DNA from: Escherichia coli
GTDB lineage: Bacteria; Pseudomonadota; Gammaproteobacteria; Enterobacterales; Enterobacteriaceae
DNA: 64,000 nucleotides
Direction: 5' to 3' (one strand)
Assembly (NCBI RefSeq): GCF_050920415.1
Contig: NZ_CP169309.1
The translations under genes were made by a program, and so were the position numbers. Positions within the stretch are counted from its first letter, which is position 1, and the number at the start of each line of letters is the position of its first letter. Under the pieces are notes generated by a model. That model searched no databases, was not told where the DNA came from, and worked only from the letters and a program-made list of their open reading frames with translations. Of the stretch, positions 3,900 to 59,940 are shown in pieces.

Positions 3900-4125
3900 C
3901 ATGGCGGATGCAGCCTACGGTTCGGCACAGACCTGTAGGCATGATAAGACGCGTCAGCGTCGCATCAGGCATTGTGCGTCGACTGCCGGATGCGGTGTGA
4001 CGCCTTATCCGGCTTACGGTTCGGCACAGACTTGTAGGCATGATAAGACGCGTCAGCGTCGCATCAGGCATTGTGCGTCGACTGCCGGATGCGGTGTGAA
4101 CGCCTTATCCGGCTTACGAAGGGCA
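3900..4125. repeat. tandem REP/BIME elements
   Basis: Two ~100-bp tandem copies of ...cggttcggcacagac(c/t)tgtaggcatgataagacgcgtcagcgtcgcatcaggcattgtgcgtcgactgccggatgcggtgtga(a)cgccttatccggc... ORFs 3901..4263 and 3730..4071 are translations of the repeat. Confidence 0.8.
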
Positions 4126-10355: not shown

Positions 10356-12446
10356 TTACTCAATGCGTACAAAAAGACCGATATAGCCACGCGTTGTATC
10401 GTGACTAATGCGGGTCCCCGAAAGCGCCGTGTAACGACCGGGGAAGTTGTATTCACCAGCACCGCCAATCACAACCTGCGGTGAGGATGCGTATGTCCCT
10501 GTATCGCTAACCCGTGCACTCATAGCCAGAGGGCCAAGACGGGAACCCGGCACAATATCACCGAGCCCCAGAGACGCATCTGCACCAAAACTCTCCCCCT
10601 GATATGCCGCCATAATCGGCACACCAACGGCCGGGTATTTATAATATGAGCCTGAGCCCGCCATCCTGGACAGCAGGTACGCCAGTGAATCTCCGTCGTA
10701 TACAACTACCCGCGATGACATGTTCCAGCTGTTATCGCTGTCGTTGTACCGGTACTGCATATAGTGAATACAGTGTTCACCCTGATAATACTGGTTGTAG
10801 CACATCAGGGTTTTAAATTTGCGGACTGTGTCGGATTCACTGTTGGCGTACGGTGACCACATCACATCAATAATGCCGTTAAATTGCGTGGTACCGGTAA
10901 GCAGTTGCGAGGAGTCTGTAATACTGACCGCATACCGCCCCGGCGTGACTTTCTTCAACCACTCAACGAAATCAGACAGCCCCTCAAACGCCAGAGCGTC
11001 AGTGCTGGTGAATGCCTGTCCAAACCCATACATCCCGGACAGGGCCAGCCTGCCCGGTGTGCGGTCACGGATATCACTCTGGGGTTCCATCGTCGCAGCC
11101 GCGTTCAGCTCAAGCTCCGTGCGCATGGCTTCAGCCGTGTCATGCGCCAGTAATGCGCGGCCCTTCTCTGACAGCAGAGACAGTGAGGCATTCCCGTCTG
11201 TATTGAAGTACAGAAGATTATCTGCCCGTTGCGTCAGTGCGCTGATTGCCGTTAAGACGTCATTAAGCGGTTGTTTGCCTGCCAGCGCGTTTGTGATTGT
11301 CGTCGCAAAGTTCGGGTCATTGCCCAGCGCCGCAGCCAGTTCGTTCAGGGTGTCCAGAACTTCCGGTGACGAATCAACCAGCGCAGCAAGCAGTTTGCGC
11401 ACAAACGCCGCGTTCGCTGCTTCCAGACCGGCGGCATCATCCTGTGGGGTTGGGGTGGTTGGGGTGCCGGTGAAGGCCGGGCTGTCCAGTGGCGCTTTTG
11501 TTTTCGTCTCCTCCATGACGGTTTTGACAGCCTTTGGCGTGGCAGCCAGTTCCTCGCTGTCGTTATCCGTGTCACTACAGAGTTGCACCAGACCTTTTTC
11601 TGTCGTGGAGGCATTTGTTGCATTCAGGTCATCAACTATCTGCTGCGTCTCATCCCTGTACTGTTTCGCTTCCTGCGCATTGTCTGCACCTGCATCCTGG
11701 CTGGCTTTAGCCTGTCGGGCGTATTCGGCGGCACTGTTTTTGTGCCCCAGCGCCGCATTTGCCGACAGTTCTGAACTGGTCGCTGCTGATGATGCGGCAT
11801 TATGATAAAGGCGGGCGCGTTCGGCGGCATCGACTGATTCGTCCCGCGCTGTGCCTGATGACTGTGCGCTGTTTTCTGCCTCACCCGCAAAACGTTCCGC
11901 ATCATCACGGGCCGTTGCGGTTGTCGTCACATCCTGTGCCGTCTGCTGTGCGTTTCCGGCTGCAGCTTCGGCGCTCTGCTGTGTCTGATTTTTTAGCTCT
12001 TCTGCCTCATCCTTACTAACCGCCGCAGATGTTGCTGCATTGATTGCATCATCAGCAGCTGTTTCTGCTCTCTCCCTGTCACTGACCACCTGCTCAGACA
12101 AGCGAACAACGGTATTTACCATTTCCTCAAAACGCTTCATTACCTCAGGGCGTAAATCACCCTCCTTTGGTGCATCCAGAAAAGCATTCAGCGTATCCGG
12201 CTCATCTGTCGGTGCAACATAAATTTCCCCCGCCTTTACAGGAGGATGCCCTGAGCGGGACAAAAATACATCATAAAATCCCGGCTCAGCATTAATAGTA
12301 TACCCGCCATCACTTCCCGTAAGACAGGTTGCCACAATATTAACCACAACTGTCGGACTGGTTCTTCTGGCTCGCAATTCAATCGCACAGTTTACGACAG
12401 GCTCACCTGCTCCGTCCTTCAGGACACCTGAAATCTTTACTGCCAT
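10356..12446 (-). CDS. stf: side tail fibre protein
   Basis: From ATG 12446: MAVKISGVLKDGAGEPVVNC..., as in lambda Stf. It has an Ala/Ser/Glu-rich coiled region and the conserved ...KGLVQLCSDTDNDSEELAATPKAVK... and LNELAAALGNDPNFATT segments. Confidence 0.9.
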   Translation of the reverse strand: MAVKISGVLKDGAGEPVVNCAIELRARRTSPTVVVNIVATCLTGSDGGYTINAEPGFYDVFLSRSGHPPVKAGEIYVAPTDEPDTLNAFLDAPKEGDLRPEVMKRFEEMVNTVVRLSEQVVSDRERAETAADDAINAATSAAVSKDEAEELKNQTQQSAEAAAGNAQQTAQDVTTTATARDDAERFAGEAENSAQSSGTARDESVDAAERARLYHNAASSAATSSELSANAALGHKNSAAEYARQAKASQDAGADNAQEAKQYRDETQQIVDDLNATNASTTEKGLVQLCSDTDNDSEELAATPKAVKTVMEETKTKAPLDSPAFTGTPTTPTPQDDAAGLEAANAAFVRKLLAALVDSSPEVLDTLNELAAALGNDPNFATTITNALAGKQPLNDVLTAISALTQRADNLLYFNTDGNASLSLLSEKGRALLAHDTAEAMRTELELNAAATMEPQSDIRDRTPGRLALSGMYGFGQAFTSTDALAFEGLSDFVEWLKKVTPGRYAVSITDSSQLLTGTTQFNGIIDVMWSPYANSESDTVRKFKTLMCYNQYYQGEHCIHYMQYRYNDSDNSWNMSSRVVVYDGDSLAYLLSRMAGSGSYYKYPAVGVPIMAAYQGESFGADASLGLGDIVPGSRLGPLAMSARVSDTGTYASSPQVVIGGAGEYNFPGRYTALSGTRISHDTTRGYIGLFVRIE

Positions 12447-12457
12447 ATTCACCCCAC

Positions 12458-12485
12458 AAAAAAGCCCGCCTGAACCCGGCGGGCT
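12458..12485 (-). terminator. intrinsic terminator after lom
   Basis: agcccgcc/ggcgggct stem followed by T6 on the minus strand. Confidence 0.7.
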
Positions 12486-12511
12486 GTCATAACACTGTGT
12501 TACCTGGCTAA

Positions 12512-13111
12512 TCAGAACTTATAACCGACACCCACGATGAAACCGTCAGTGCGCCAGTCGCCACTGCCGGAGCCTTCATAAGCAATATCAATAGCCACGG
12601 ATTCGGTCGGGTTAAACTGCACGCCAGCTCCCCACGCCAGAGACGTGTTGCTGTGGCGACCGTCATCACTTCCGGTCAGCACATCGTGCGTTTTCCCCTT
12701 ATTGTCAGTTACGCGGAGATAATCCCCGGAGAAAGTCGACACACGGCTGTAAGCCACACCCGCCATCGCATACGCGCTGAACCATTCATTCACGCGCACA
12801 GACGGCCCCGCCATTACGCTGAACCAGCGGTTACGAACGGAATCTTCATGCCAGCGGGTATCGCTGTAACGGGTCAGCTGGCGATTCTTGTCTCCTGCAT
12901 AGCTGAATGACGTCACCATACCCAGTGTGTCCGTAAACTCATAACGGTATTTCACGTTAATCCCGTTCAGATCATCGCTGCCGGGAACGTTCGTCGAGAC
13001 ATGAAGATACCCCGCGCTCAGCGTGGACTGATGTTCAGACGCCCATGCAGGCGCACCGGATAAGGCCAGACAAATGGCTGCGGACAAAATGGCGGCATAA
13101 AGTTTACGCAT
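12512..13111 (-). CDS. lom: Ail/Lom/OmpX-family outer-membrane beta-barrel
   Basis: 199 aa with a signal peptide (MRKLYAAILSAAICLALSGAPAWA), alternating beta-strand pattern and a C-terminal ...GVGYKF. It occupies the lambda lom position. Confidence 0.9.
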   Translation of the reverse strand: MRKLYAAILSAAICLALSGAPAWASEHQSTLSAGYLHVSTNVPGSDDLNGINVKYRYEFTDTLGMVTSFSYAGDKNRQLTRYSDTRWHEDSVRNRWFSVMAGPSVRVNEWFSAYAMAGVAYSRVSTFSGDYLRVTDNKGKTHDVLTGSDDGRHSNTSLAWGAGVQFNPTESVAIDIAYEGSGSGDWRTDGFIVGVGYKF

Positions 13112-13135
13112 AATTACCTCTCGCTTTTCTGCAAT

Positions 13136-13159
13136 AAAAAAGGCGTCATTTCTGACGCC
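13136..13159 (-). terminator. intrinsic terminator after J
   Basis: ggcgtca/tgacgcc stem plus T6 on the minus strand. Confidence 0.7.
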
Positions 13160-13177
13160 CGTTATGGGTTATAAAAT

Positions 13178-16100
13178 TCAGCTGATACTGATACCTGCTG
13201 TGGATTTCTTCATCACCACAACCAGCAGATCGCTGATACTGGTTGTTGGTGTCCAGTTATTCGCTCCTGATGAAGATACGGTGAATGTCAGTGTCAGCGT
13301 CCCCTGTCCGGCAGGCATATCTATAACTGAGGAAAATACGCCCTGAGCATCCGTCGTGGACTGATTAAAAATCTCCTGACCATTGCGGGTCACTCTTAAC
13401 CGGCAGGTTGAATACCAGTATGACTGTTGGTTATTACTGTTGAAATTCTCATGCTTACCACCACGGAACAACACTGGCGGTATCATGACCTGCCGGTCAA
13501 ATTTCTGATCATCACTGATTCTTACCGTGATGGTGCCACTGGCATAACTGTTCGTGCGGGGGAAAGACTTGCTGACCGTTTTGACAATATCGCCTTCAAT
13601 CTGGTTGGCTGACAGTTTCCCCTTAATCTGACAGTTCTCATTTATCGTGACGTTGTTGAGCGTCCCGGAGTTCGCATTCACGTTACCGCTGATATCGGCA
13701 TTTTTAGCGGTCAGCTTTCCGTCCGGTGTCAGGGAAAATGCAGGAGGATTACCGCCGCTGGTAATGGTGGGAGCCGTCAGATATTTCAGGAACACTTCAT
13801 TCATGAATATCTGATCACCCTGACCAACAAACATCGGTTTTGTGTTGCCATTTGCAGGATTAATCATCGCAATCCTGTCTGCCGCCAGCAGCACCTGACT
13901 CTGCATGCCGTCGGGGGTGTTCTCAATACCGGCACCGATACCCGCAATATAAAGGCGACCATCCTGCATCTGCTGCAGTTTCACGGCCCACATACTGTTC
14001 AGGTTATTACTGGTGTCCGTCTGAACCTTTTGTATCTGCTGGATGGTGGCCTCCTGATCTCCCAGCTTCTGGTCCGTTGTCGTCATGATTTCACTGCTTT
14101 TTTGATCCACATACTGGCGAACCTGCGCTATCTGGCGTGCATTCTCCTCATTACTCTGACTGACCGTCTGCGTGAGTTCGCTGCTGACGTTATCCACTCT
14201 CTGGCTCACCTGTGATATACCCAGTGACAGCTCATCATTTTTTTTCGCAACCAGCTGTGTGAGGCTGTTTTCTGTCTCCCCGATTTTTTGGGTCACTTCA
14301 GCAATATCACTCTCTATCTGCTGATTGATCTCATCCTCCAGTTGCTCAACTTCACTGCGCAATGCCGAGGCATTAATACGATCGTTCAGCTCCTGCCCCA
14401 GCAGGGTGCTGTTTATTTTCCCTTCAAAAAAATTGAGATACACCTCAGCATCATTAACCGGCTGGCCAACAGCTTCCACAAACGCTGATTTACCGACGAT
14501 GTTCACACTGCGGATATAAAAGTAATAATCATGGCCCGGCCTGATATTAATACTGGCAGCTGTCCAGTACATCGCCGTACCAAGATAGCGGGCTGTGGTT
14601 TCAACCTGCCGGATATCCGTAATCTGATTTTCCGAGAACCAGAACTCAAACTGCACCGTCGGGTCATACACCGCAAGACGCGGGACTGCCGTTATCTGAA
14701 AATACCCCGGTATCAGTTCAATCTGTGACGGCGCTGCCGGGGCGTTAATCCGGAATGAGGTGGTGGCGGGTTCCCCCTGCTGGCCATAACTGTTTATCGC
14801 CCGCACCGTCAGGGTGTATTCCCCCAGTGGCAGACCACTGAAACGGTGCGCCGTGTCTGCAGTGATGGCGTTGGTCACCAGACGGCTGTCTTCACCGCTT
14901 CCACGGTTCAGGCGCAGACTGAAGCGCACACCCTTCACCACCCGCGGCGTGTCCCATTTCGCCTGCGCCAGATACTGGCCATCATCCGCGCTCACCTCCA
15001 CCGTGAGGTGCTGCACTGCCGGAGGAGTGACGCTGTTCAGGGAGCCGGACAGCGGCTCAAAGGTGGCCCCGTTATCCACAATGGCTTCTTTTTCCGGTAC
15101 GTGCTGCACCGCCGTGATGGCAAAGGTGCCGTCCGTGTTTTCCCGGATGGCCACACAGCGGAACAGGCGACGTCGAAGGCCGGGAATTTTCAGCCCCCAT
15201 ACCCCGTATGTCGCCACGCCATCAGGCAGGGCGCTGACCTGTATCCGGTCAGGAGCAGGCTGTGCCGTGATGTCCACACTCACCGGCTTACCGCTGCCAT
15301 TAATCAGGTTCACCGTGGCGGTACCGGTCTCCGGAAGCGTCACCTCCCGGTCCAGCGTCAGGGTGAGACTGGCGGCATCGATGTTCAGAATGCGCCCGCC
15401 GGTCAGGGTCCCGGCGTAGTCGTTATCACAGACTTCAATGATGTCACCGGGCGTGTGGCGCAGCCCCTGTGATCCGAGCGTGAAATCCACCGTCTGCGTT
15501 TCCAGCAGTTCGGTCTTTATCACCCACAGTCCGGCACGGTGAGCCTGACCGCGACTGGTACAGCCGAACGCATCCATCTTCAGCAGATTACGTCCGTAGC
15601 GCAGTATGGCTTCCGGGTCTTCCACCAGTTCAGTGGAGGTCTGCCAACCGTTCTGCGGGTCGGTGTAATTCACCTCCACCGCCGTGTGCCGGTCCTTCAG
15701 GGCGCTGAAGCTGTAGCGGAAGCCCACACCGTTATCATCCACCACCACATCGCTGTTGGTGTAGGGCCACACCACATCCGACGGGCGGTCCTGCACGAAC
15801 GTCAGCGTCTGCCCGTTCCATACCGGCATACAGCGCATCGCCGAGCAGAAATCACTGAGCACATCCCACGCCTTACGCTGTTGTGACAGGTACGCATTAA
15901 ACGTCATCCGCGGTTCGGTCCCCCCGAAGCCATCCGGCACCGGCTGGTCGCAGTACTGCGCAATGGCATACAGAGCCCATTTGTCCACGTCTGCGGCCCC
16001 CAGACGTTTCCCCATCCCGTAGCGCGGGTGGGTCAGCATGTCCCACAGGCACCAGGCCGGGTTGTTGCTCCAGGCCGGTTTCATACACCCGTCCCAGATA

Positions 16101-16873
16101 CCGCTGTAAGTACGTTTTTCCGGGTCATAGTTTGACGGCACCTGAATGATGCGACCGCGGATATGGTAGTTCACAGTTATCTGCTGACCGCCAAACTGCT
16201 CCGCATCCACCTGCAGGCCCACAATGGCCGTGTTCGGGTAGCACTGTTCCACATCGATGATTTCGGTGTATGACGACCACAGCGTTCTGTTCTGCAGCTG
16301 GTCCGTGGTGCTGTCAGCCGTCTCCCTGACCATCCGGATGTTAAAGGGGCGCTCAGGCAGATTATTCAGAATCACCGACGTCAGGTACTGCGAGGTGGTC
16401 TTACCGTTAATGGTGACATCCTTTTCCGTCACCCAGCTACCGTTACGCTGCAGCTGAATCAGCAGACGAACAGAAGCCGGATTACGGTCGCCCCTGGAGG
16501 TGGTCTCCACCAGTGACTGTACCCCGAAGGTGACCCGCAGGCGGTCAATGTTCGCGGACGTGATGGTACGCGTCACCGGCTTTGCCTTCGTCACTTCCAC
16601 ACCCAGCGCAGTTTCAGCCCCGGAGGACTCAAAACCTTCCGGCGGGGTCTGCTCCTGCTCCCCGGCGCGCCAGACGGCGGTCACACCGTGTATCACGGGA
16701 TTGCCGTCCGTGTCCGTCAGCGGGGTTTTATTCACCAGGATACTCTGCAGTCCCTTCACCGGGCCTTCTATCGGTCCCTCTCCAATCGCATCAATCACGC
16801 TCATCATCTGCGTGGACTTAAGATTGTCCTTTGCCTCAACTGGCGTGTGCGCCTTGCCGCCACCTTTTCCCAT
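13178..16873 (-). CDS. J: host-specificity / central tail fibre protein J
   Basis: 1231 aa from ATG 16873 ([37 protein letters not shown]...), lambda J-like over most of its length. RBS aagggtgagg. Confidence 0.9.
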
Positions 16874-17026
16874 TGCCTCACCCTTTACTGTGATAACTGT
16901 TACGCACAAAAGAACAGGCCCCCCGGGGATGCCTGTATCATAATGACTGAATAAAAATTCTGAGTTTATTCACATTTCCGGAAACTGACGGTTGCAGGAA
17001 TAACTCCACATTTTTACAGTTCTTCA

Positions 17027-17118
17027 GCCTGATAAAGGCAATTGGTCAAAACTTAACTAATCAAGGTGACTATTCATTTCTCCCGTAATATTCGTGAGTA
17101 TTACGGGAGATTTTTTTT
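17027..17118 (+). ncRNA. candidate small RNA antisense to the tail operon (I-J spacer)
   Basis: Predicted promoter: TTGCAG (16992-16997), a 17-nt spacer, then TACAGT (17015-17020). It ends at the terminator at 17079-17118. There is no ORF in the interval. Confidence 0.3.
17079..17118 (+). terminator. strong plus-strand intrinsic terminator inside a minus-strand operon
   Basis: A perfect 12-bp stem, tctcccgtaata/tattacgggaga, with an 8-nt loop and then T8. The T-run overlaps the stop codon of gene I. Its minus-strand image has no U-tract. Confidence 0.75.
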
Positions 17119-17761
17119 ATCCTCTGCCGATAACCACCACTTTCCCGTCACCACCTTCATCACGGGTACTGATGTCCTGGGATATCCGTCGGGAACCAAC
17201 CAGCATTTCACCGTATGGCACCGGCACCGGATTACCCTGAGCAATCATATTGTCCAGCGAGGAAAAGTAGGTGTTCTGTCTGCCGTTATCCGTTGTCCGG
17301 TAATCCGGTGTTTTTGCCTTCGGGGCCAGCATCTGTGCCACCCCACCCAGCGCCATTGCAGTCCCCATGGCAAACATAATATTGCTGGCTGCAATACCGA
17401 TACCCGGCATCCAGATAGCTGCCGCAGCCAGCGCAACGCCAAGAACCGCCTGAAACACACCCCCACTTTTGGCTCCTTCAGTCCGGGGTACCAGATGAAT
17501 GACATCCCCCGGGCTCAGTGGCTCATGCAGTCGGGTCGATATCTGGTCCGGCGCAGTATCCTCACCGGCAATACGTACCCGGTACCAGCCTTCGGTCATC
17601 TGACGGCGGAATCCCGGCAGCTGCAGAGACAGCGCCCGGATGGCTTCCGCTGCCGTGTTCACATACAGGCTGAGGCGGCGGCCAAATCGTTGTAAATCCC
17701 CGTGAAGGCAGATGCGGACCAGTGGCGGTGATGCCAGACAGAATGCGTTCGTCGTTGCCAT
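17117..17761 (-). CDS. I: tail assembly protein I
   Basis: 214 aa. ...ICLHGDLQRFGRRLSLYVNTAAEAIRALSLQLPGF... and ...NTYFSSLDNMIAQGNPVPVPYGEM are lambda I-like. Confidence 0.9.
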   Translation of the reverse strand: MATTNAFCLASPPLVRICLHGDLQRFGRRLSLYVNTAAEAIRALSLQLPGFRRQMTEGWYRVRIAGEDTAPDQISTRLHEPLSPGDVIHLVPRTEGAKSGGVFQAVLGVALAAAAIWMPGIGIAASNIMFAMGTAMALGGVAQMLAPKAKTPDYRTTDNGRQNTYFSSLDNMIAQGNPVPVPYGEMLVGSRRISQDISTRDEGGDGKVVVIGRG

Positions 17762-18402
17762 TTTTCAGAATACCTCTCCCGTTTACTCAGTTGTTCAGGT
17801 ATATGGTGAAGCAGTTCACCGTTACCGCAGTAAATGGCGGCGTGATTGGCCACCGATGCGCCAAAGCAGCACAGCAGGATATCGCCCGGCTGTGCAGAGG
17901 GCAGGGGCACCCGGTAAAAGCCCGTGGCCTCCATATTGTCCAGGTACAGGTTCTGGCCGTTGCGCCACCACTCATCCTCGCGCGCAAAATCCGGCAGCGT
18001 TATCCCTGCCAGATGGTATGCATCCCGGAACAGGGTGTAACAGTCCGTCACACCATGTTCAAAGCGCCGTCCGGTCAGGTGCGGCACACAGCGGAACTTG
18101 TGAATCGCCCCCCGGCAGACCAGCCACCAGGACAGGGCACTTTTCACCTGCAGCCGCCGGTCCGCCTCGCTCAGCCAGGGCAGACCACCGGGATGACTGT
18201 GGACCAGTGCCACAATCTCCCCCTGCATCTCTGCCCGCAGCCAGTCCTCCGGTGCAATACGAAAATATGCCTCAGGCTCTGCGGAGGTATTCACGCAGGG
18301 AAGATACCTGTCTCCCTCCGGCGTTCTCACCACGAAGCCGCACGACTCCGCAGGCGCACACCGCCGGGCATGCGCCAGAATCGCTGATTCAGTCTGTGTC
18401 AT
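17659..18402 (-). CDS. K: tail assembly protein K (NlpC/P60 + JAB-like)
   Basis: From ATG 18402: MTQTESAILAHARRCAPAESCGFVV...HSHPGG..., lambda K-like. The long upstream extension in the ORF track is discounted. Confidence 0.9.
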   Translation of the reverse strand: MTQTESAILAHARRCAPAESCGFVVRTPEGDRYLPCVNTSAEPEAYFRIAPEDWLRAEMQGEIVALVHSHPGGLPWLSEADRRLQVKSALSWWLVCRGAIHKFRCVPHLTGRRFEHGVTDCYTLFRDAYHLAGITLPDFAREDEWWRNGQNLYLDNMEATGFYRVPLPSAQPGDILLCCFGASVANHAAIYCGNGELLHHIPEQLSKRERYSEKWQRRTHSVWHHRHWSASAFTGIYNDLAAASACM

Positions 18403-18412
18403 AAAATGGGAT

Positions 18413-19111
18413 TTACTGCGAAAGTTTATTAATGGAAAGGAAACCGCCAAAATTAGCGACCATGCCGCGCATCTCACACCCGCGCATGCACTTGCTGCAT
18501 TTGTCCTTACGGATATCTGTGGTGGGTTTATCGAACTCATCCGCCACTGCCGGACCGTTATACCCGCATTCATCTCCCCGGTAATCCCACATACAGGTAT
18601 TCGCCAGCATAATGCGACCGGGAAACAACGCCCCGTCCGTCTCGGTCGGAGTGGCCAGCACAAACGAGGCCGTCATGGCCGTCAGCTCTGACATCTGCTC
18701 CACCACCCAGCGGTCGCTCAGCTCCTGCTCCGGGTCCGCCTCCGGATTGCCCGCAACGAAATTCACCGCATCCAGAAAACGCGCATACACCCGGCGGCGG
18801 ACCACCGTTGCCCCCACCAGACTCTGCAGGTCCTCCGCCATCCCGGTGACAAGGCCAAACAGATTGGACACCGTCAGCGACGGTCTGGCACTGCTGCCCT
18901 TCCCGTTCATCTCAAAGCCGCTGCCGTCAATCGGGTATGCCTGATATTCCCGCCCCTGCCAGGTCACCGGCTCCCCTTTTTCATTCAGCTCATTGCAGAA
19001 AAAATACCGCTCACCGCCCTGCACCGTCAGGTCGATTTCCCAGAGTACCACCCGCGGTGACTGCTCTGATTTAACCGACTCGTTAAGACTTTCTTCGTGG
19101 ATATCCTGCAT
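18413..19111 (-). CDS. L: minor tail protein L
   Basis: 232 aa (MQDIHEESLNESVKSEQSPRVVLWEIDL...), lambda L-like. Confidence 0.9.
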   Translation of the reverse strand: MQDIHEESLNESVKSEQSPRVVLWEIDLTVQGGERYFFCNELNEKGEPVTWQGREYQAYPIDGSGFEMNGKGSSARPSLTVSNLFGLVTGMAEDLQSLVGATVVRRRVYARFLDAVNFVAGNPEADPEQELSDRWVVEQMSELTAMTASFVLATPTETDGALFPGRIMLANTCMWDYRGDECGYNGPAVADEFDKPTTDIRKDKCSKCMRGCEMRGMVANFGGFLSINKLSQ

Positions 19112-19440
19112 CAGTTCACCACCTGCTTAAACTCCGCGCTGAACTCAACGCGCAACATCCCGACCCGCGCAGACCACCCGGCACAGGTCACCTTTATCTG
19201 CCGGTATGCATAAGGCGGTGTCCACAGAAACGCCTTCCAGCCACCGTGCTCTGCCAGGAACGCCTCCAGATGCCGGGCCTCCTCCCGGGTCACGGAAAGC
19301 ATCACCCTGTATGTTTTCAGGTCAGCATTCAGTCCCGCCGCCATGCGCTGCGAATACCCGTCACCAAAACGCACTTCACGCACCGATGACTGCGAGTTCA
19401 CCTCCATATCCGGCTTCACTTTCCAGTGAAATGTTTTCAT
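19111..19440 (-). CDS. M: minor tail protein M
   Basis: 109 aa in the lambda M position. Start and stop overlap its neighbours. Confidence 0.9.
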   Translation of the reverse strand: MKTFHWKVKPDMEVNSQSSVREVRFGDGYSQRMAAGLNADLKTYRVMLSVTREEARHLEAFLAEHGGWKAFLWTPPYAYRQIKVTCAGWSARVGMLRVEFSAEFKQVVN

Positions 19441-21947
19441 CGCCCGCTCCCTGATAACATACCGCCATCACGTAACTGCAGCCGGAGCTCATCCTGCGCC
19501 CCCTTACGGGCCATGTCATACACCGCTTTCATCAGCTGCGGCCCCGCCTGTCCGTTGATACCGTCGTTCTGAATCACCACGTGATTGTTCTGATTAAAAT
19601 TAATGCCTTCCACCCGCCGCATCTGCGCCGGACTTCCGGCACCACCCACATAACCACCTTCCGCATAGCCATGCATCAGGCGGTACAGGTTGCCGACGCC
19701 AATCCGGCTGGTCGCCTCCTTCGTGAAGACAAACTCCCCGCGGTGAACAATCCCCGCAGGCTCGTATTTGCCGCCAGTACCTGTAAAACCACCACCGGCA
19801 AACCCAATGGCACTACCGATACTCCCGACAATCCCCACCATTGCCTGCTTAAGCAGAATTTCTGTCATCATGGACAGCACGGAGCGGGTGAAGCTGCGCC
19901 AGTTCTGTTCACTGCCGGTCAGCATCGCCGCCATATTCTGCGCAATACCATCAAAGGTCTGCGTGGCCGCGCTTTTAACCTGCGAAAAACTGTCCATGGC
20001 ACTTTCCGCCCACTCACCCCAGCCGGATTTCAGCCCGACCATCCAGCTTCCACGAAGCTGCTCCTCCGCAGACCAGGTGTTCTTCAGTGCAGATGTGGCC
20101 TTCGCCAGCGCATCCGGATTATCACCGTACACGTCACGAAGGCGCTGCTCTTCCGACTCCCGCTGCGCCTGACGGTCGGTGAGGCCGCGGGCTTTTGCGC
20201 TGATGGCGGCCTGCTTCGCGCTCTGCTGCTGTTCAAACCGCGCCGCCTGCTGTGCCAGCTCATTCAGCCGTTTCTGGTGTTCAACCTTGTCGCCCAGGTC
20301 AGCCAGCTGGCGTTTGTACTCCAGCGTCTCTTTCTCATGGGCCAGCAGCGATTTTTCCTGCCCGGATAACTGCCGTTTCGTGGCGGCCTCTTTCAGGACC
20401 GCATACTGATTTTCCGCTTTCCATAAATCACGGCGCTGCTGGCTGATTTTCTCATTCGCACCGGCATGCTTCTCCAGCGTCCTGAGCTCAGTTTCAAGCG
20501 CCAGCATGGCTGCATGCGCCCGGTCTTCCTGACGCTCCCCGGCTGACACTTTGACACCTGACGACTTCGGTTTTTTCAGCGTCGATTCATAATCCTTTTT
20601 CGCCGCCGCCATCAGCGTGTTGTAATCCGCCTGCAGGATTTTCCCGTCTTTCAGGGCATTATTCAGCTCTTCCTGCCGGTCAGTATATTTCTCCAGTGGC
20701 GTCAGCAGGCGCTCATACGCCTTCTGCGCCTCTCCGGTATACTTCAGCTGTGACGCCTCACGCTCAGCCCGGTCCCTTGCCACCAGTTCACCGGCTTTTT
20801 CCATATCCGACTGCAGCGTGGCTGCCGCCAGCCCCAGACGGGCATTTTCACGGTCATCCCATGCACCCTGAAGGTTGGCACGGAAAGAGGAGGTCTTTCC
20901 CCGGCGCTGACTCCGGCTCTGGTACCACTGCCATTTTTTATCCGCCTCATCAAATGCCTTCTGCGCACTGGCGAGCATATCCGCTGAGGATTCAGGACGA
21001 CCGATATCCAGGATGGCATCCCACATCAATTTGAATGCCTTCCCGGTTTTATCCGCCCAGGTTTCCAGCGTCCCCATGTTTTCTTTCAGGCGACGGGTCT
21101 GCTCATCAAAGCCTTTTGTGGCGATATCGTTCGCCGCCTGTAAGGCCCCTGCCTCATCACCCGAACGCTGCAGCTGCGTAACATACGCAATCTGCTCTGC
21201 CGTCACGTTACGGAACTGGCGCGCCATAGCCATCAGTCCCGACGTCGGGTCGGTGGTCAGCTTTCCAAAAGCCTCTGCAACCTTGTCCACTTCCACACCG
21301 GATGCAGAAGCAAAACGCGCCACACTCTGGTTGATGGCATCAAACTGTTCACCACCACGCACACCGGCATTCACCAGGGCTGCCAGTGACTCACTCGCCT
21401 GGTTAAACGTCAGCCCTGCTGCCTGTCCGGCTCTGGAGAGCGTCAGCATGCGAGCGGCAGTCAGTCCGGACTGATTACCGGAAAGAACCAGGGTTTTATT
21501 AAACGCTGAAAGCATGGAATCCCCCTGGTACCAGGCATACGCCAGCGCACCTGTCGCCACCGCCAGCGAGGTGACCCCGACCATCGGCAGGGTGATCGCA
21601 CCGGCAAGCCCCCTGAACATGGGGAGCATCCCGCCGAAGGCGTCCTTCACCTGACCGCCCTGTTGCAGCAGAATAAGCCAGGGATTCTGACCACCGGCAA
21701 GCTGCGTGGCGATATCCGTAAACTGTGCAGGCAGGGTACGCATGGCCGCTTTATACTGCCCGACGGAAATCCCGGCTTTTTGTGCAGCCAGCGCCTGACG
21801 GCTCAGGCCCTGTTCAACAGCACTGGCGGTTTTTCTGGCGTCGGTATCCAGTCCTGAAAAATGACGCCTTACCCGGCTTATCTGCTCATCGAAACGGACC
21901 GCATCCAGACTCAGGTCAATAACAAGATCACCAACCGGCTGGGACAT
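19437..21947 (-). CDS. H: tail tape measure protein H
   Basis: 836 aa, long and alpha-helical/Gln-Ala-rich, in the lambda H position. Confidence 0.9.
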   Translation of the reverse strand: MSQPVGDLVIDLSLDAVRFDEQISRVRRHFSGLDTDARKTASAVEQGLSRQALAAQKAGISVGQYKAAMRTLPAQFTDIATQLAGGQNPWLILLQQGGQVKDAFGGMLPMFRGLAGAITLPMVGVTSLAVATGALAYAWYQGDSMLSAFNKTLVLSGNQSGLTAARMLTLSRAGQAAGLTFNQASESLAALVNAGVRGGEQFDAINQSVARFASASGVEVDKVAEAFGKLTTDPTSGLMAMARQFRNVTAEQIAYVTQLQRSGDEAGALQAANDIATKGFDEQTRRLKENMGTLETWADKTGKAFKLMWDAILDIGRPESSADMLASAQKAFDEADKKWQWYQSRSQRRGKTSSFRANLQGAWDDRENARLGLAAATLQSDMEKAGELVARDRAEREASQLKYTGEAQKAYERLLTPLEKYTDRQEELNNALKDGKILQADYNTLMAAAKKDYESTLKKPKSSGVKVSAGERQEDRAHAAMLALETELRTLEKHAGANEKISQQRRDLWKAENQYAVLKEAATKRQLSGQEKSLLAHEKETLEYKRQLADLGDKVEHQKRLNELAQQAARFEQQQSAKQAAISAKARGLTDRQAQRESEEQRLRDVYGDNPDALAKATSALKNTWSAEEQLRGSWMVGLKSGWGEWAESAMDSFSQVKSAATQTFDGIAQNMAAMLTGSEQNWRSFTRSVLSMMTEILLKQAMVGIVGSIGSAIGFAGGGFTGTGGKYEPAGIVHRGEFVFTKEATSRIGVGNLYRLMHGYAEGGYVGGAGSPAQMRRVEGINFNQNNHVVIQNDGINGQAGPQLMKAVYDMARKGAQDELRLQLRDGGMLSGSGR

Positions 21948-22392
21948 ATCTCACACCTCCAGGAATCCCCGCTGAAGCCATCATTAATGCGACATCATCC
22001 TCACTGACATCCACCACATCCGCAGAAGGTGAAATATCGCCCCCTCCTTCCCCACCAAACCGGATGCCTCCGGCAAGTCCTGCCGCTTTCTGCATCAGCA
22101 TTTTTTCCTCATCCGCCATCTCCGTCTGCTCTTCCTCACGCCGGGGGGCAAGCAGACTGAAGTCCGAGGGATACATATCCGGATCGCAAAAAAACAGGCT
22201 GAGTACGGTGTACGTCAGCCCGGAAAAATGCATATCCAGTTGGGTATCGTGAAAATAATGCGTGCGGTAAAAATGTCGCCAGTCGGCATATTCGGTGGAT
22301 GTCATCCCGGCAAGCATGGCGCGCCAGTCAGGCCTCCCCATCTCACGCGCCAGTCTGAGGGCAAAATTCAGCTCGCCGTCGAAGACTTTCCC
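21928..22392 (-). CDS. T: T portion of the G-T tail assembly chaperone (reached by -1 frameshift)
   Basis: The -1 frame from the slippery site reads GKVFDGELNFALRLAREMGRPDWRAMLAGMTSTEY... and stays open to 21928. Confidence 0.85.
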   Translation of the reverse strand, partial: GKVFDGELNFALRLAREMGRPDWRAMLAGMTSTEYADWRHFYRTHYFHDTQLDMHFSGLTYTVLSLFFCDPDMYPSDFSLLAPRREEEQTEMADEEKMLMQKAAGLAGGIRFGGEGGGDISPSADVVDVSEDDVALMMASAGIPGGVRYVPAGW

Positions 22393-26344: not shown

Positions 26345-26398
26345 AAAAAAATCCCGTAAAAAAGCCGCACAGGCGGCCTTTAGTGATGAAGGGTCAGG

Positions 26399-26731
26399 TT
26401 AAACGATGCTGATTGCCGTTCTGGCAAACGCGGTCCGTTTTTTCGTCTCGTCGCTGGCAGCCTCCGGCCAGAGCACATCCTCATAACGGAACGTGCCGGA
26501 CTTGTAGAACGTCAGTGTGGTGCTGGTCTGGTCAGCAGCAACCGCAAGAATGCCAACGGCAGCACCGTCGGTGGTGCCATCCCACGCAACCAGTTTACGG
26601 GTGGAGGTGTCCAGCATCAGCGGGGTCATTGCAGGCGCTTTCGCACTCAATCCGCCGGGCGCGGTTGCGGTATGAGCCGGGTCACTGTTGCCCAGCGGCT
26701 GGTAATGGGTAAAGGTTTCTTTGCTCGTCAT
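26399..26731 (-). CDS. D: head decoration protein D
   Basis: 110 aa from ATG 26731 ([41 protein letters not shown]...). Confidence 0.9.
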
Positions 26732-36962: not shown

Positions 36963-37264
36963 ACCCCGTCTCCCGTTATCCGGAAACTGACAACAATAAA
37001 AAAGCCACCCGTTAATTACTGATGGCTCTGATGCATAAACGTCATCATTCCTGACCGTTATGATTGACAATGGTTATCATTTTTATATAAAAATACTCCC
37101 GATATGTGTTACATATCATTTCTCCACGGGGAATATCCCCACGCCAGCGTCAGACTCGTTTTCCCGTTCTCTTCTGTGCTGGCGTTTTTTTTATTATGAT
37201 GTCGGTACATTTATCTCCAGCACCAGGCTTTCAATCTCAACACCATACGCGGAATTTTTGGGCG

Positions 37265-37291
37265 TAAAAAATCCCCTCCGGTGAGGGGATT
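37265..37291 (-). terminator. intrinsic terminator closing the TerB-like module
   Basis: aatcccctc/gaggggatt 9-bp stem followed by T6 on the minus strand. Confidence 0.7.
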
Positions 37292-37523
37292 TGCTTATGT
37301 AAACATTTACACTGCTTACCTGCATGGTGCCGGGTGCCTCCCGGTGAATTCAGTATCAGCACCTGAATCCGCAATTATCCCATATACCTACTTGCTGATT
37401 GCCCCTCCGCACAGGGGGATTCACCATGCGAAATTTTTTTAACAAATGCTCAGTCTGACAGGCAACTGTCAACTGGCTGAATTGTGAGACATTTAAAATT
37501 TTCGGGGCGTAACTGATACCCGG

Positions 37524-38289: not shown

Positions 38290-38366
38290 TGGCGCGTTGT
38301 ACTGGATTCGAACCAGTGACCGATTGCTTAGAAGGCAATTGCTCTGTCCGACTGAGCTAACAACGC
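38290..38366 (-). tRNA. tRNA-Arg (anticodon UCU, reads AGA)
   Basis: 77 nt: GCGTTGTTAGCTCAGTCGGACAGAGCAATTGCCTTCTAAGCAATCGGTCACTGGTTCGAATCCAGTACAACGCGCCA. It folds into a clean cloverleaf with anticodon loop CTTCTAA, and it resembles argU. Confidence 0.9.
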
Positions 38367-38379
38367 ATGATGCAGATAA

Positions 38380-38460
38380 TGGACCGCCATCGAGGACTCG
38401 AACCCCGCACCAACAACCCTGTTATCGTGTCGTCTGCTCTTCCTGATGAGCTAATGGCGG
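38380..38460 (-). tRNA. tRNA-like gene with non-canonical anticodon arm (identity undetermined)
   Basis: 81 nt: CCGCCATTAGCTCATCAGGAAGAGCAGACGACACGATAACAGGGTTGTTGGTGCGGGGTTCGAGTCCTCGATGGCGGTCCA. The acceptor, D and T arms and the CCA end are good. The anticodon region is about 5 nt too long: stem ACGAC/GTTGT encloses an 11-nt loop. Confidence 0.55.
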
Positions 38461-38467
38461 TACGTTA

Positions 38468-38542
38468 TGGTGGCCCTGCTGGATTTGAACCAGCGACCTG
38501 GCGATTATGAGTCGCTCACTCTCACCACTGAGCTAAAGGGCC
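38468..38542 (-). tRNA. tRNA with CAU anticodon, ileX-like (tRNA-Ile2/Met)
   Basis: 75 nt: GGCCCTTTAGCTCAGTGGTGAGAGTGAGCGACTCATAATCGCCAGGTCGCTGGTTCAAATCCAGCAGGGCCACCA. By eye it is very close to E. coli ileX, and the acceptor stem is one base short. Confidence 0.8.
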
Positions 38543-38582
38543 GGGCGCAGGATAATAACGGTACGTAACTAATTCTGCAATA

Positions 38583-46574: not shown

Positions 46575-47722
46575 TTGCGCCCCCTTACCTCGGAAGAGTT
46601 CAGCGACGAATGAATAAGACGGGCAAGAAATGCCGCATCGTTAATTCGGTCATACAGACTTACAGCCAGCGGTGATTCAGCTTTTTCCAGCATGGGATAA
46701 AGCTGCTGCAACCAGACCTGATGAATTGATGAAATGTAGGAATAGAGTACGCTGGCGTTATGTGCAACGTCGCTCGGTACAGCGGGCTTTGAAAGCTGTT
46801 TCTCCATCTGGTTAAAGGCATTGATGTATGCCTCTTTGAACTGGGCAGCACGTTTACCCGTGAAACCCATAGCAAGAAACGCAAAACCGTCGCGGGTTAT
46901 TTGATAGCAAGGTAGTTTGCGGCCTGTGCAATCGGTGTAATCACTCACCGAAAAATTGCGGGCAGTGAATGATGCGGAGCATTCAAGCGTGCGGATCTTT
47001 TTCAGTACATCGTCATGACGTTTGGAGAAGAAGTTGGCAACAGCCAGGGATGAAGTAACAGCCTGACCATCAACGATGGCAATTTCAGGTTGAGTGAGGG
47101 TTGGGATCGTAGCCATGATGGCAGCCTCTTTGGTGATTTTTAATAACTCACCACCAAGGCTTTCCACGACCTTATTGGTGGTGAGACGTACAGGGGTGGA
47201 AATACCGGTCACCAAAGAACCCGGCCCAACCGAAGTTGGCCCTGCACGCCCCACCATAATTTGGGCGTAATGCTGCTCATGACACAAAAAAACCGCAAGA
47301 GCGCGGTTGTGCGCTTTGGTGAATTCCGGGTTTCCACGCCCGGCACCCGCTTTATAAGGTGCCTGAACAGTGTAACGTCCCGGAATGGCAGAATCAATGT
47401 GCTGGTGGTCCTTCACACTCAACAAAATCACGCCTGAATTTCCACAAAGGGCTAAAGCACTCATGCGGGTAGTCTTTGCGAAGATAGATAACGCGCTGTG
47501 TTTCTGGCTCCCAACGAATAACATGAACATAAAGTCCTCTTCCGTCACGAAACCAGCGGTTAAGTTCCTGCACAACTCGCCCCCCACAGTCAGGTAAAGT
47601 TCTCTGTGGTTACTTACAGCCAGGAGATTTGGTAATCTGCATTCATGCCGTAACAACAGGTGTTCAGCGACGCTGACCACCAGCTGTTGCGACAAATGGT
47701 TATTTGCCGTTAAACTGTTCAT
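46571..47722 (-). CDS. Rha-family phage regulatory protein with an unrecognised 193-aa N-terminal extension
   Basis: The C-terminal half from MATIPTLTQPEIAIVDGQAVTSSLAVANFFSKRHDDVLKKIRTLE... (internal ATG 47143, RBS agagg) is a typical Rha N-terminus. The same frame is open upstream to ATG 47722, which overlaps the previous stop. Confidence 0.6.
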   Translation of the reverse strand: MNSLTANNHLSQQLVVSVAEHLLLRHECRLPNLLAVSNHRELYLTVGGELCRNLTAGFVTEEDFMFMLFVGSQKHSALSIFAKTTRMSALALCGNSGVILLSVKDHQHIDSAIPGRYTVQAPYKAGAGRGNPEFTKAHNRALAVFLCHEQHYAQIMVGRAGPTSVGPGSLVTGISTPVRLTTNKVVESLGGELLKITKEAAIMATIPTLTQPEIAIVDGQAVTSSLAVANFFSKRHDDVLKKIRTLECSASFTARNFSVSDYTDCTGRKLPCYQITRDGFAFLAMGFTGKRAAQFKEAYINAFNQMEKQLSKPAVPSDVAHNASVLYSYISSIHQVWLQQLYPMLEKAESPLAVSLYDRINDAAFLARLIHSSLNSSEVRGRK

Positions 47723-59329: not shown

Positions 59330-59495
<166 letters not shown>

Positions 59496-59617: not shown

Positions 59618-59704
59618 GCGAAGGTGGCGGAATTGGTAGACGCGCTAGCTTCAGGTGTTAGTGTCCTTACGGACGTGGGGGTTCAAGTCCCCCCCCTCGC
59701 ACCA
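59618..59704 (+). tRNA. leuQ: tRNA-Leu (CAG)
   Basis: 87-nt class II tRNA: GCGAAGGTGGCGGAATTGGTAGACGCGCTAGCTTCAGGTGTTAGTGTCCTTACGGACGTGGGGGTTCAAGTCCCCCCCCTCGCACCA. Confidence 0.95.
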
Positions 59705-59732
59705 AAAACCACGTTGATATTGCTCGCACTGG

Positions 59733-59819
59733 GCGAAGGTGGCGGAATTGGTAGACGCGCTAGCTTCAGGTGTTAGTGTTCTTACGGACGTGGGGGTTCA
59801 AGTCCCCCCCCTCGCACCA
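59733..59819 (+). tRNA. leuP: tRNA-Leu (CAG)
   Basis: Second copy, with one base difference in the variable arm (gtgttctt). Confidence 0.95.
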
Positions 59820-59853
59820 AACGAGGCGATATCAAAAAAAGTAAGATGACTGT

Positions 59854-59940
59854 GCGAAGGTGGCGGAATTGGTAGACGCGCTAGCTTCAGGTGTTAGTGT
59901 CCTTACGGACGTGGGGGTTCAAGTCCCCCCCCTCGCACCA
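59854..59940 (+). tRNA. leuV: tRNA-Leu (CAG)
   Basis: Third copy, identical to the first. Confidence 0.95.

Follow-up and report, generated by a model that had tools for sequence, protein, structure and literature searches.

The window, a 64,000-nt stretch of Escherichia coli DNA, contains a lambdoid prophage. We analyzed the spacer between its tail genes I and J and describe there a putative gene for a small RNA (sRNA). Comparison with other prophages places it in a family that includes PasB of enteropathogenic E. coli (EPEC) and EcOnc22, EcOnc23 and EcOnc24 of enterohaemorrhagic E. coli (EHEC). I and J both lie on the minus strand. Neighboring tail genes abut or overlap (J 13178-16873, I 17117-17761, L 18413-19111, M 19111-19440, H 19437-21947), and the I-J spacer measures 243 bp (16874-17116). 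The list of open reading frames (ORFs) holds no credible ORF in this spacer, where all frames are at most 25 amino acids (aa) long. An earlier note on the same DNA had reported a tightly packed tail operon with an ORF-free gap of about 240 bp. Both observations are borne out, the gap after small coordinate corrections. The features of the locus are the following.

13178-16873, minus strand: tail tip/host-specificity gene J, from the ORF list, with its ATG at 16873; gpJ is annotated in matching genomes.
16905-16935, minus strand: tail-strand hairpin (16915-16935) followed, as read on this strand, by UUCUUUUGUG (16905-16914); kept in related spacers.
16950-16991, plus strand: A/T-rich conserved upstream block (AAAAATTCTGAGTTTATTCACATTTCC...), the left end of the inserted unit, from the cassette alignment and tandem repeats.
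16992-17020, plus strand: candidate sigma-70 promoter P1, with TTGCAG (16992-16997), a 17-nt spacer and TACAGT (17015-17020), from the sequence and the alignment.
17027-17118, plus strand: predicted sRNA of about 92 nt (inferred 5' end), from the fold and a match to the type-2 profile described below.
17055-17066, plus strand: AACTAATCAAGG, where nearly all other family members have AACTCCTTAA(G/C)G with the anti-Shine-Dalgarno-like CUCCUU, from the alignment of 50 cassettes.
17079-17118, plus strand: intrinsic terminator with a 14-pair stem and 4-nt loop (17079-17110) and T8 (17111-17118), from the terminator scan.
17117-17761, minus strand: tail assembly gene I, from the ORF list, with its stop codon at 17117-17119; 'tail assembly protein' is annotated in matching genomes.

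The plus-strand terminator directly abuts gene I. Its sequence is TCTCCCGTAATATT-CGTG-AGTATTACGGGAGA (17079-17110) followed by TTTTTTTT (17111-17118), and the final two T of the T8 overlap the I stop codon. The earlier note had described a perfect 12-bp hairpin with T8 at this position, oriented for plus-strand transcription. The T8 and the orientation are as described, but the stem is longer, with 14 pairs made up of a perfect 12-pair run, one G-U pair and one A-U pair. This stem is the longest among 17 terminator-like sites in 12000-22000, and in a comparison of 16 family terminators the window terminator ranks as the strongest, at -19.6 kcal/mol. The U-rich UAUUCAUUU is located directly before the stem. 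A terminator at the I stop codon with a U-rich single-stranded stretch ahead of it is the arrangement found in the I-J-slot family. On the minus strand AAAUGAAUAG comes after the hairpin and there is no U-tract, as had been stated before.

The predicted RNA is composed of a 5' hairpin (17027-17039), a middle hairpin (17043-17072), a U-rich linker (17073-17078), the terminator and U8. The 92-nt sequence folds with -30.8 kcal/mol (z = -5.4), and 0 of 200 shuffled sequences are as stable. Its overlap with I is limited to 2 nt of the stop codon, and about 150 nt separate it from the J start. Complementarity to the tail mRNA is thus limited to its intercistronic part, which is not the arrangement of a classical cis-antisense RNA. 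The element had been called a candidate antisense sRNA; it is better read as an independent predicted sRNA gene placed antisense in the intercistronic gap.

P1 is located 87 nt upstream of the hairpin, with the hexamers and spacing that had been described. Taken alone this weak promoter candidate is no better than chance, and its support comes from comparison. We fetched 80 related prophage loci from IMG/VR (labeled in the style of L029) via the J N-terminus, extracted their spacers and aligned 50 unique cassettes. The J homologues retrieved are 94-100% identical to the first 200 aa, which translate cleanly. At least one cassette is present in 66 of the 80 loci, each composed of a conserved block, a -35 TnG, a -10 TAnnnT, an RNA body and a terminator. 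The earlier note had suggested BLASTN as a check for a conserved cassette in other lambdoid tails, and such a cassette evidently exists. In 13/80 loci the same slot carries, in the same orientation, the gene for a 175-aa Cu/Zn superoxide dismutase (sodC) followed by a promoter-truncated cassette; 1/80 is too short to judge.

The promoter block of the window aligns with those of the 49 other unique cassettes. Its layout is ..TTCTGAA..TTCACATTT.. with the -35 TnG and the -10 TAnnnT at fixed spacing, and TCACATT is invariant in the alignment. In the -10 element the T, the A and the last T are invariant across the 50 cassettes and the three positions between them vary. The window TACAGT aligns with TAGTGT in PasB, and the 5' end reported for PasB is 6-7 nt downstream of this -10. 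The invariant TAnnnT and the position of the PasB 5' end together support TACAGT as the -10 element. Many alleles also contain a TATAAT-like element about 22 nt further upstream. Its window version is AATAAC, without the final T, and use of this element would put the 5' end near 17011 instead of near 17027. The J-proximal half of the spacer (spacer positions 2-128) has matches at about 85% identity in 629 E. coli genomes and 86 phage records, mostly phages converting to Shiga toxin (Stx) production. The matching phages likewise have about 240 bp between I and J and a plus-strand terminator next to the I stop codon.

Comparison with lambda indicated what has been inserted. The lambda I-J spacer is 60 bp long, lacks a cassette and holds only a hairpin with a U-rich run (ACCGCCTGCGGGCGGTTTTGTC) just before J. 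The segment from about 16950 to 17118, about 170 bp, is therefore an insertion relative to lambda. Several loci carry two or three tandem cassettes, and in L029 the promoter block occurs three to four times at 217-232-nt spacing. The upstream block recurs at the start of each unit in the tandem arrays, which shows that it belongs to the cassette and not to the J leader. Repetition of the whole unit in other prophages likewise identifies it as a discrete module. The promoter region is common across loci, whereas the RNA bodies differ.

Tandem units of differing types, each with its own promoter block, are found at L029:700-1500 and L016:1000-1500 and in L053, L056, L077, L018, L041, L061 and L049. 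Duplicated fragments of the 3' end of gene I are located between tandem units. The SodC-like ORF (GFHVHEKGNC...GGGGARMACG) has its own terminator and is followed by a type-1 sRNA without the upstream promoter block. It was noted upstream of J in L027, and also in L023, L033, L037, L043, L045, L052, L054, L057, L058, L060 and L067.

The earlier note missed a second hairpin, on the tail strand, which a U-rich run follows; the element sits some 30-60 nt upstream of J. All related spacers contain it, with one compensatory exchange, T-A to C-G (CAGGCATCC..GGATGCCTG versus CAGGCACCC..GGGTGCCTG). The window copy has a 1-base deletion and an A/G mismatch. Judging from its analogue in lambda, this hairpin belongs to the ancestral I-J leader and lies outside the inserted cassette. 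Within the late operon it resembles a terminator, an attenuator or a hairpin that stabilizes mRNA.

Two sets of known RNAs occupy the same slot. PasB of EPEC O127:H6 E2348/69 is an 83-nt RNA on the minus strand of NC_011601 (1466343-1466261) that was validated by Northern blot (Pearl Mizrahi et al., 2021; PMC8550237 Tables S2, S5 and S6). Its level drops by log2 6.8 in an hfq deletion, and RIL-seq, which sequences ligated pairs of interacting RNAs, recorded 37 interactions, with Hfq-dependent chimeras involving many core and accessory mRNAs (PMC8550237). In RefSeq NC_011601 the plus strand carries both I, with its end at 1466255, and gpJ, which begins at 1466496; PasB is on the opposite strand. 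Its terminator is 5 nt from the I stop, in prophage PP6. Like the window RNA, PasB has its place between I and J of a lambdoid prophage and runs antisense to the tail operon. The two have in common a homologous promoter block upstream, in which the -10 elements align, an intrinsic terminator at the I stop and a U-rich stretch ahead of it. They differ in size (83 versus about 92 nt, the window RNA having about 14 extra nt), in the terminator stem (CCCGCAG versus CUCCCGUAAUAUU) and in a core motif (CUCCUU in PasB, CUAAUC in the window RNA). PasB has been validated experimentally, whereas the window RNA is a prediction from the sequence, and blastn and a type-1 profile detect no similarity between the bodies.

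EcOnc22, EcOnc23 and EcOnc24 were found in EHEC O157:H7 Sakai, in prophages Sp15 (Stx1), Sp14 and Sp11, as peaks of Hfq crosslinking and cDNA analysis (CRAC) (Tree et al., 2014; PMC4104026 Table S2). They give a Northern band of about 85 nt that is destabilized without hfq (PMC4104026 Table S2). In the current Sakai record all three sets of coordinates map to I-J spacers, antisense to the tail genes. The table coordinates are offset relative to NC_002695.2, by +137 to +146 nt for AgvB (AgvB1), and STnc100 in Sp17 is consistent with this. After the shift, we infer that the three land on the sRNA body, the EcOnc22 peak on the promoter-to-terminator RNA of the Sp15 cassette (L085:1515-1575 moves to about 1650-1715). 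Mapping the EcOnc RNAs onto today's Sakai record without the shift would place them in the wrong part of these short spacers. The 5' end GCCUGAAAAA and the motif UAACUCCAUAACGUUAAUCUUCAU of the EcOnc RNAs resemble GCCUGAUAAA and UAACUAAUCAAGGUGACUAUUCAU in the window RNA. Unlike the window RNA, EcOnc22, EcOnc23 and EcOnc24 are of type 1, with the CCCGCAG terminator and without a 17-nt insert.

The link between the EcOnc RNAs and PasB is absent from the two papers on the Pas sRNAs considered here. The PMC8550237 table names no EHEC homologue for PasB, and the 2026 preprint (Zhu, Shabalina and Storz, bioRxiv 10.64898/2026.05.13.724894) contains neither the term 'EcOnc' nor cassettes. The word 'tandem' appears in the preprint only where a tandem duplication of pasA and pasD is ruled out. 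In its searches, matches had to cover more than 75% of the E2348/69 query, a threshold that would leave out the window allele.

The RNA bodies of the family form two groups. Type 1, which includes PasB, EcOnc22 and most alleles of Stx phages, has the body ..AACUCCUUAA.GUUAAUCUUCAU.. and a CCCGCAG/CUGCGGG terminator. Type 2 includes L016_1, L041_1, L049_1, L029_2, L056_2, L077_2 and the window clade, and has ..AAGGUGACUAUUC(A/G)U.. with a CUCCCGU.AAUAU/AUAUUACGGGAG terminator. The terminator stems of both types share the core pairs CG CG CG GC, and the next pairs are CG AU GC in type 1 versus UA AU AU in type 2. Two terminator pairs therefore change on both sides between the subfamilies while the helix is kept. 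RNAalifold on six type-2 RNAs recovered the terminator alone and found no both-sided changes within type 2; covariation is seen only between the subfamilies.

Profile searches agree with the placement in type 2. With the window clade left out, a profile built from the six other type-2 RNAs matches 17032-17116 with E = 1.7e-13. The type-1 profile ranks the same six RNAs first against a 64-kb background, weakly (E = 0.017-0.077). A global alignment of the bodies gives z = 9.4 for the window RNA and L056_2. The family single-stranded motif is AACUCCUUAA..(G/U)UAAUCUUCAU. Its second half is recognizable in the window as GGUGACUAUUCAU, and its first half is AACUAAUCAAGG. The latter occurs only in the window clade (window/L005, L006 and GB089); the rest of the family has AACUCCUUAAGG.

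Several results weigh against reading the locus as an sRNA gene of this family. Mature PasB has no blastn match in the spacer with word sizes of 28, 11 and 7, and only chance 10-14-nt matches elsewhere in the window. An nhmmer profile of 41 type-1 RNAs does not match the window at E <= 10. When only the bodies are aligned, the similarity to PasB or EcOnc22 is marginal (z = 2.4), and 1.3-2.4% of shuffles score as well. Full-length pairwise scores against the two RNAs were higher (z about 5) but are inflated by the shared U-tail and were set aside for this reason. CUCCUU, the family's most conserved single-stranded motif, is CUAAUC in the window RNA. P1 matches only 7/12 consensus positions and was missed by our promoter scan, which requires at least 9/12. 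Rfam at permissive E-values over 14000-20000 has no match in the spacer, the sole match of its covariance models at E <= 1 in this interval being a chance internal ribosome entry site inside gene I. Finally, a target search inside the window, in which duplexfold paired the 52-nt body with 121 start regions, found no signal: the best energy was -27.2, a level that 13 of 25 shuffled sRNAs reached too.

The Rfam result has a simple counterpart: the PasB locus itself (L004) and the Sakai I-J spacer (L085) also lack a match, which indicates that the I-J-slot family is not in Rfam 15. By the similarity of the mature RNA to PasB or EcOnc22, the window RNA does not qualify as a member. Comparative evidence ties it to PasB through its position, the promoter block and the type-2 intermediates, not through direct similarity of the bodies.

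Taken together, we propose that the segment of about 170 bp (about 16950-17118) is a self-contained 'moron' inserted antisense in the ancestral short I-J leader of a lambdoid prophage, encoding a predicted trans-acting type-2 sRNA of the PasB/EcOnc family. We assign this reading a probability of about 0.65. An Hfq-type, terminator-ended plus-strand RNA of about 90 nt had been predicted for the site and left unplaced. Homology to PasB, EcOnc22-24 and their promoter block, together with the same slot and orientation, supports the prediction and places the element in the PasB/EcOnc22-24 I-J-slot family. This kind of element is already known, EcOnc22-24 since 2014 and PasB since 2021. The window element appears as a new, diverged and unannotated type-2 member. 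What is new is limited to this member with its altered core motif, and to the I-J slot as a variable, sometimes tandem cassette site that accepts sodC.

The proposed mechanism follows that of PasB. Host RNA polymerase would start at the weak sigma-70 promoter TTGCAG/TACAGT, as suggested by the PasB alignment, and would make an RNA of about 92 nt with a predicted extent of 17027-17118. Transcription would stop at the strong hairpin and U8 abutting the I stop codon. By homology, the U-rich linker, terminator hairpin and poly-U tail may serve as the usual Hfq-binding module. Through limited base pairing the RNA would then act in trans on mRNAs of host and prophage, in the manner seen for PasB by RIL-seq. 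Its targets probably differ from those of PasB and EcOnc22-24, because CUCCUU is CUAAUC in the window.

Comparable arrangements are known from other phage elements. The anti-sRNAs AgvB and AsxR of the EHEC PR' moron site (Tree et al., 2014; Rfam RF02702 and RF02703) are also short promoter-RNA-terminator inserts in a fixed intergenic slot of lambdoid prophages, convergent with the adjoining phage genes, and they are bound by Hfq. However, their slot is downstream of Q/PR' and not in the tail operon, and their sequences are unrelated. Their sponge mechanism against GcvB and FnrS is not implied for the window RNA. Phage morons (Juhala et al., 2000, as cited in PMC4104026) are likewise autonomous units with their own promoter and terminator, located between two genes of a phage operon, and the window cassette is similarly absent in lambda. 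Morons such as sodC of the same slot carry a protein gene, whereas the cargo of the window cassette is a predicted non-coding RNA of about 92 nt.

Three other explanations were considered. The first is that the main job of the RNA is in cis, on the I-J segment of the late tail mRNA, which we regard as unlikely. Either pairing or convergent transcription could lead to cleavage by RNase III or lower the expression of J; in reverse, the abundant late mRNA could mop up the sRNA upon prophage induction. Full complementarity to the polycistronic tail transcript is built into the RNA, its place next to J is kept in every related prophage examined, including the tandem arrays and the sodC loci, and automatic complementarity would allow the fast divergence of bodies between alleles. 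However, PasB forms Hfq-dependent chimeras with many mRNAs (37 interactions; PMC8550237), and the short motif AACUCCUUAA..UUAAUCUUCAU is kept across otherwise different alleles, which a cis role would not require. Two bases of the I stop codon aside, the RNA overlaps neither the coding sequences nor the ribosome-binding sites of I and J, and lambda assembles its tails without the cassette.

The second explanation, about as improbable as the first, is that the window allele is a decaying relic of a PasB-type cassette, weakly expressed or silent and functionless. The change from CUCCUU to CUAAUC could reflect either retargeting or decay. Loss of this motif, the rarity of the clade (15/5426 complete genomes), the AATAAC version of the upstream TATAAT-like element and the 1-base deletion in the adjoining tail-strand hairpin would all fit decay. 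In contrast, the window terminator surpasses the others of the family in strength and ends in a complete U8, and the 5' and middle hairpins and the U-rich linker are intact. The -35 TTGCAG is nearer to the consensus than TAGCCG of the Sakai Sp15 cassette assigned to EcOnc22, and the -10 TACAGT is common to many alleles.

The third, that there is no sRNA and the hairpin with U8 merely insulates the tail assembly genes from antisense read-through originating in oppositely oriented genes downstream of J, is very improbable: the terminator does face against the tail operon exactly at the gene boundary, and the sodC-bearing loci do show antisense genes in the slot, but nothing antisense lies upstream of it in the window spacer except the cassette's own promoter region, homologous cassettes yield discrete 83-85-nt Hfq-bound RNAs, and each tandem unit has its own promoter block.

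The I-J junction of lambdoid prophages as a whole may be a modular, hypervariable sRNA cassette site rather than the seat of a single low-diversity sRNA. A shared promoter block and Hfq/terminator module would flank swapped or diverged bodies, in single copy, in two to four copies or together with sodC, and the window clade would be a retargeted allele. We put this forward tentatively, as a possibility that falls short of an even chance. If true, it would contradict the current view that, among the Pas sRNAs, PasB varies least in sequence and synteny, and would join PasB, EcOnc22-24 and the unannotated type-2 RNAs in one evolving system. In EPEC and EHEC, host gene expression is rewired by prophage sRNAs, whose set varies from strain to strain. 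When blastn searches start from the E2348/69 sequence, entire subfamilies at the I-J slot escape them. Should the altered core motif shift target choice, closely related prophages would impose different post-transcriptional programs on their hosts. The fixed position facing the tail mRNA also offers a simple way to ask whether such sRNAs talk to phage late genes. For the window alone the result is modest, the correct call of a known type of element.

The distribution of the window RNA is narrow. The whole spacer is found, at 98% identity, in 15 of 5426 complete E. coli genomes. Strains with this allele include GB089, 08-00022, 09-00049, RM9088, OkiPb01701 and MFDS1022581. A sensitive blastn search with the RNA finds 82 of the same 5426, 15 at 98-99% identity and 67 of the L056_2 type at about 82%. 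Among the window-clade records listed, the adjacent I gene is the only feature annotated under the match, and the others listed have no annotation there. Many of the type-2 carriers listed are named as Shiga toxin-producing E. coli (STEC) or come from cattle, beef or human sources. Among species-representative genomes the type-2 pattern has no match, and the type-1 pattern matches only Escherichia albertii, among about 50 otherwise chance matches. At this search stringency the family looks confined to Escherichia.

Other candidates at or near the locus were rejected. A hidden small protein in the spacer is disfavored since the 34-aa tail-strand frame of Sakai Sp15 is not kept in E2348/69, and the window frames are short. 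A 209-aa GTG frame running antisense through I was judged obviously spurious. A weak profile match at 26345-26416 (minus strand) is the lambda-type D-E intergenic hairpin (AAGGCCGCCTGTGCGGCTTTTTTACGGGATTTTTTT) by the major capsid gene; its resemblance to the family terminator (CGGGATTTTTTT) is due to chance, and it is not a second copy.

Several further RNA features are found in the window. A C4 antisense RNA (83.6 bits) and isrK (67 bits) are located side by side at 47174-47362 (minus strand). The two are the usual pair in P1/P7-type immunity or antirepressor regions of lambdoid prophages. Inside the prophage there are also phage-borne genes for tRNA-Arg(UCU) and tRNA-Met(CAU) (38290-38543, minus strand). 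A strong match to STnc100 (148.7 bits) is located at 37260-37458 (minus strand). No AgvB or AsxR match is found beside it, unlike in Sakai Sp10 and Sp17. STnc100 is related to the PasD sRNAs (bioRxiv 10.64898/2026.05.13.724894). Elements of the naRNA4/repetitive extragenic palindromic (REP) type are present at 3938-4114 and 59396-59478. The flanking chromosomal region contains three tandem tRNA-Leu(CAG) genes (59618-59940, plus strand), and the fhuF-yjjP-bglJ flank of the window is 100% identical to that of strain MFDS1022581.

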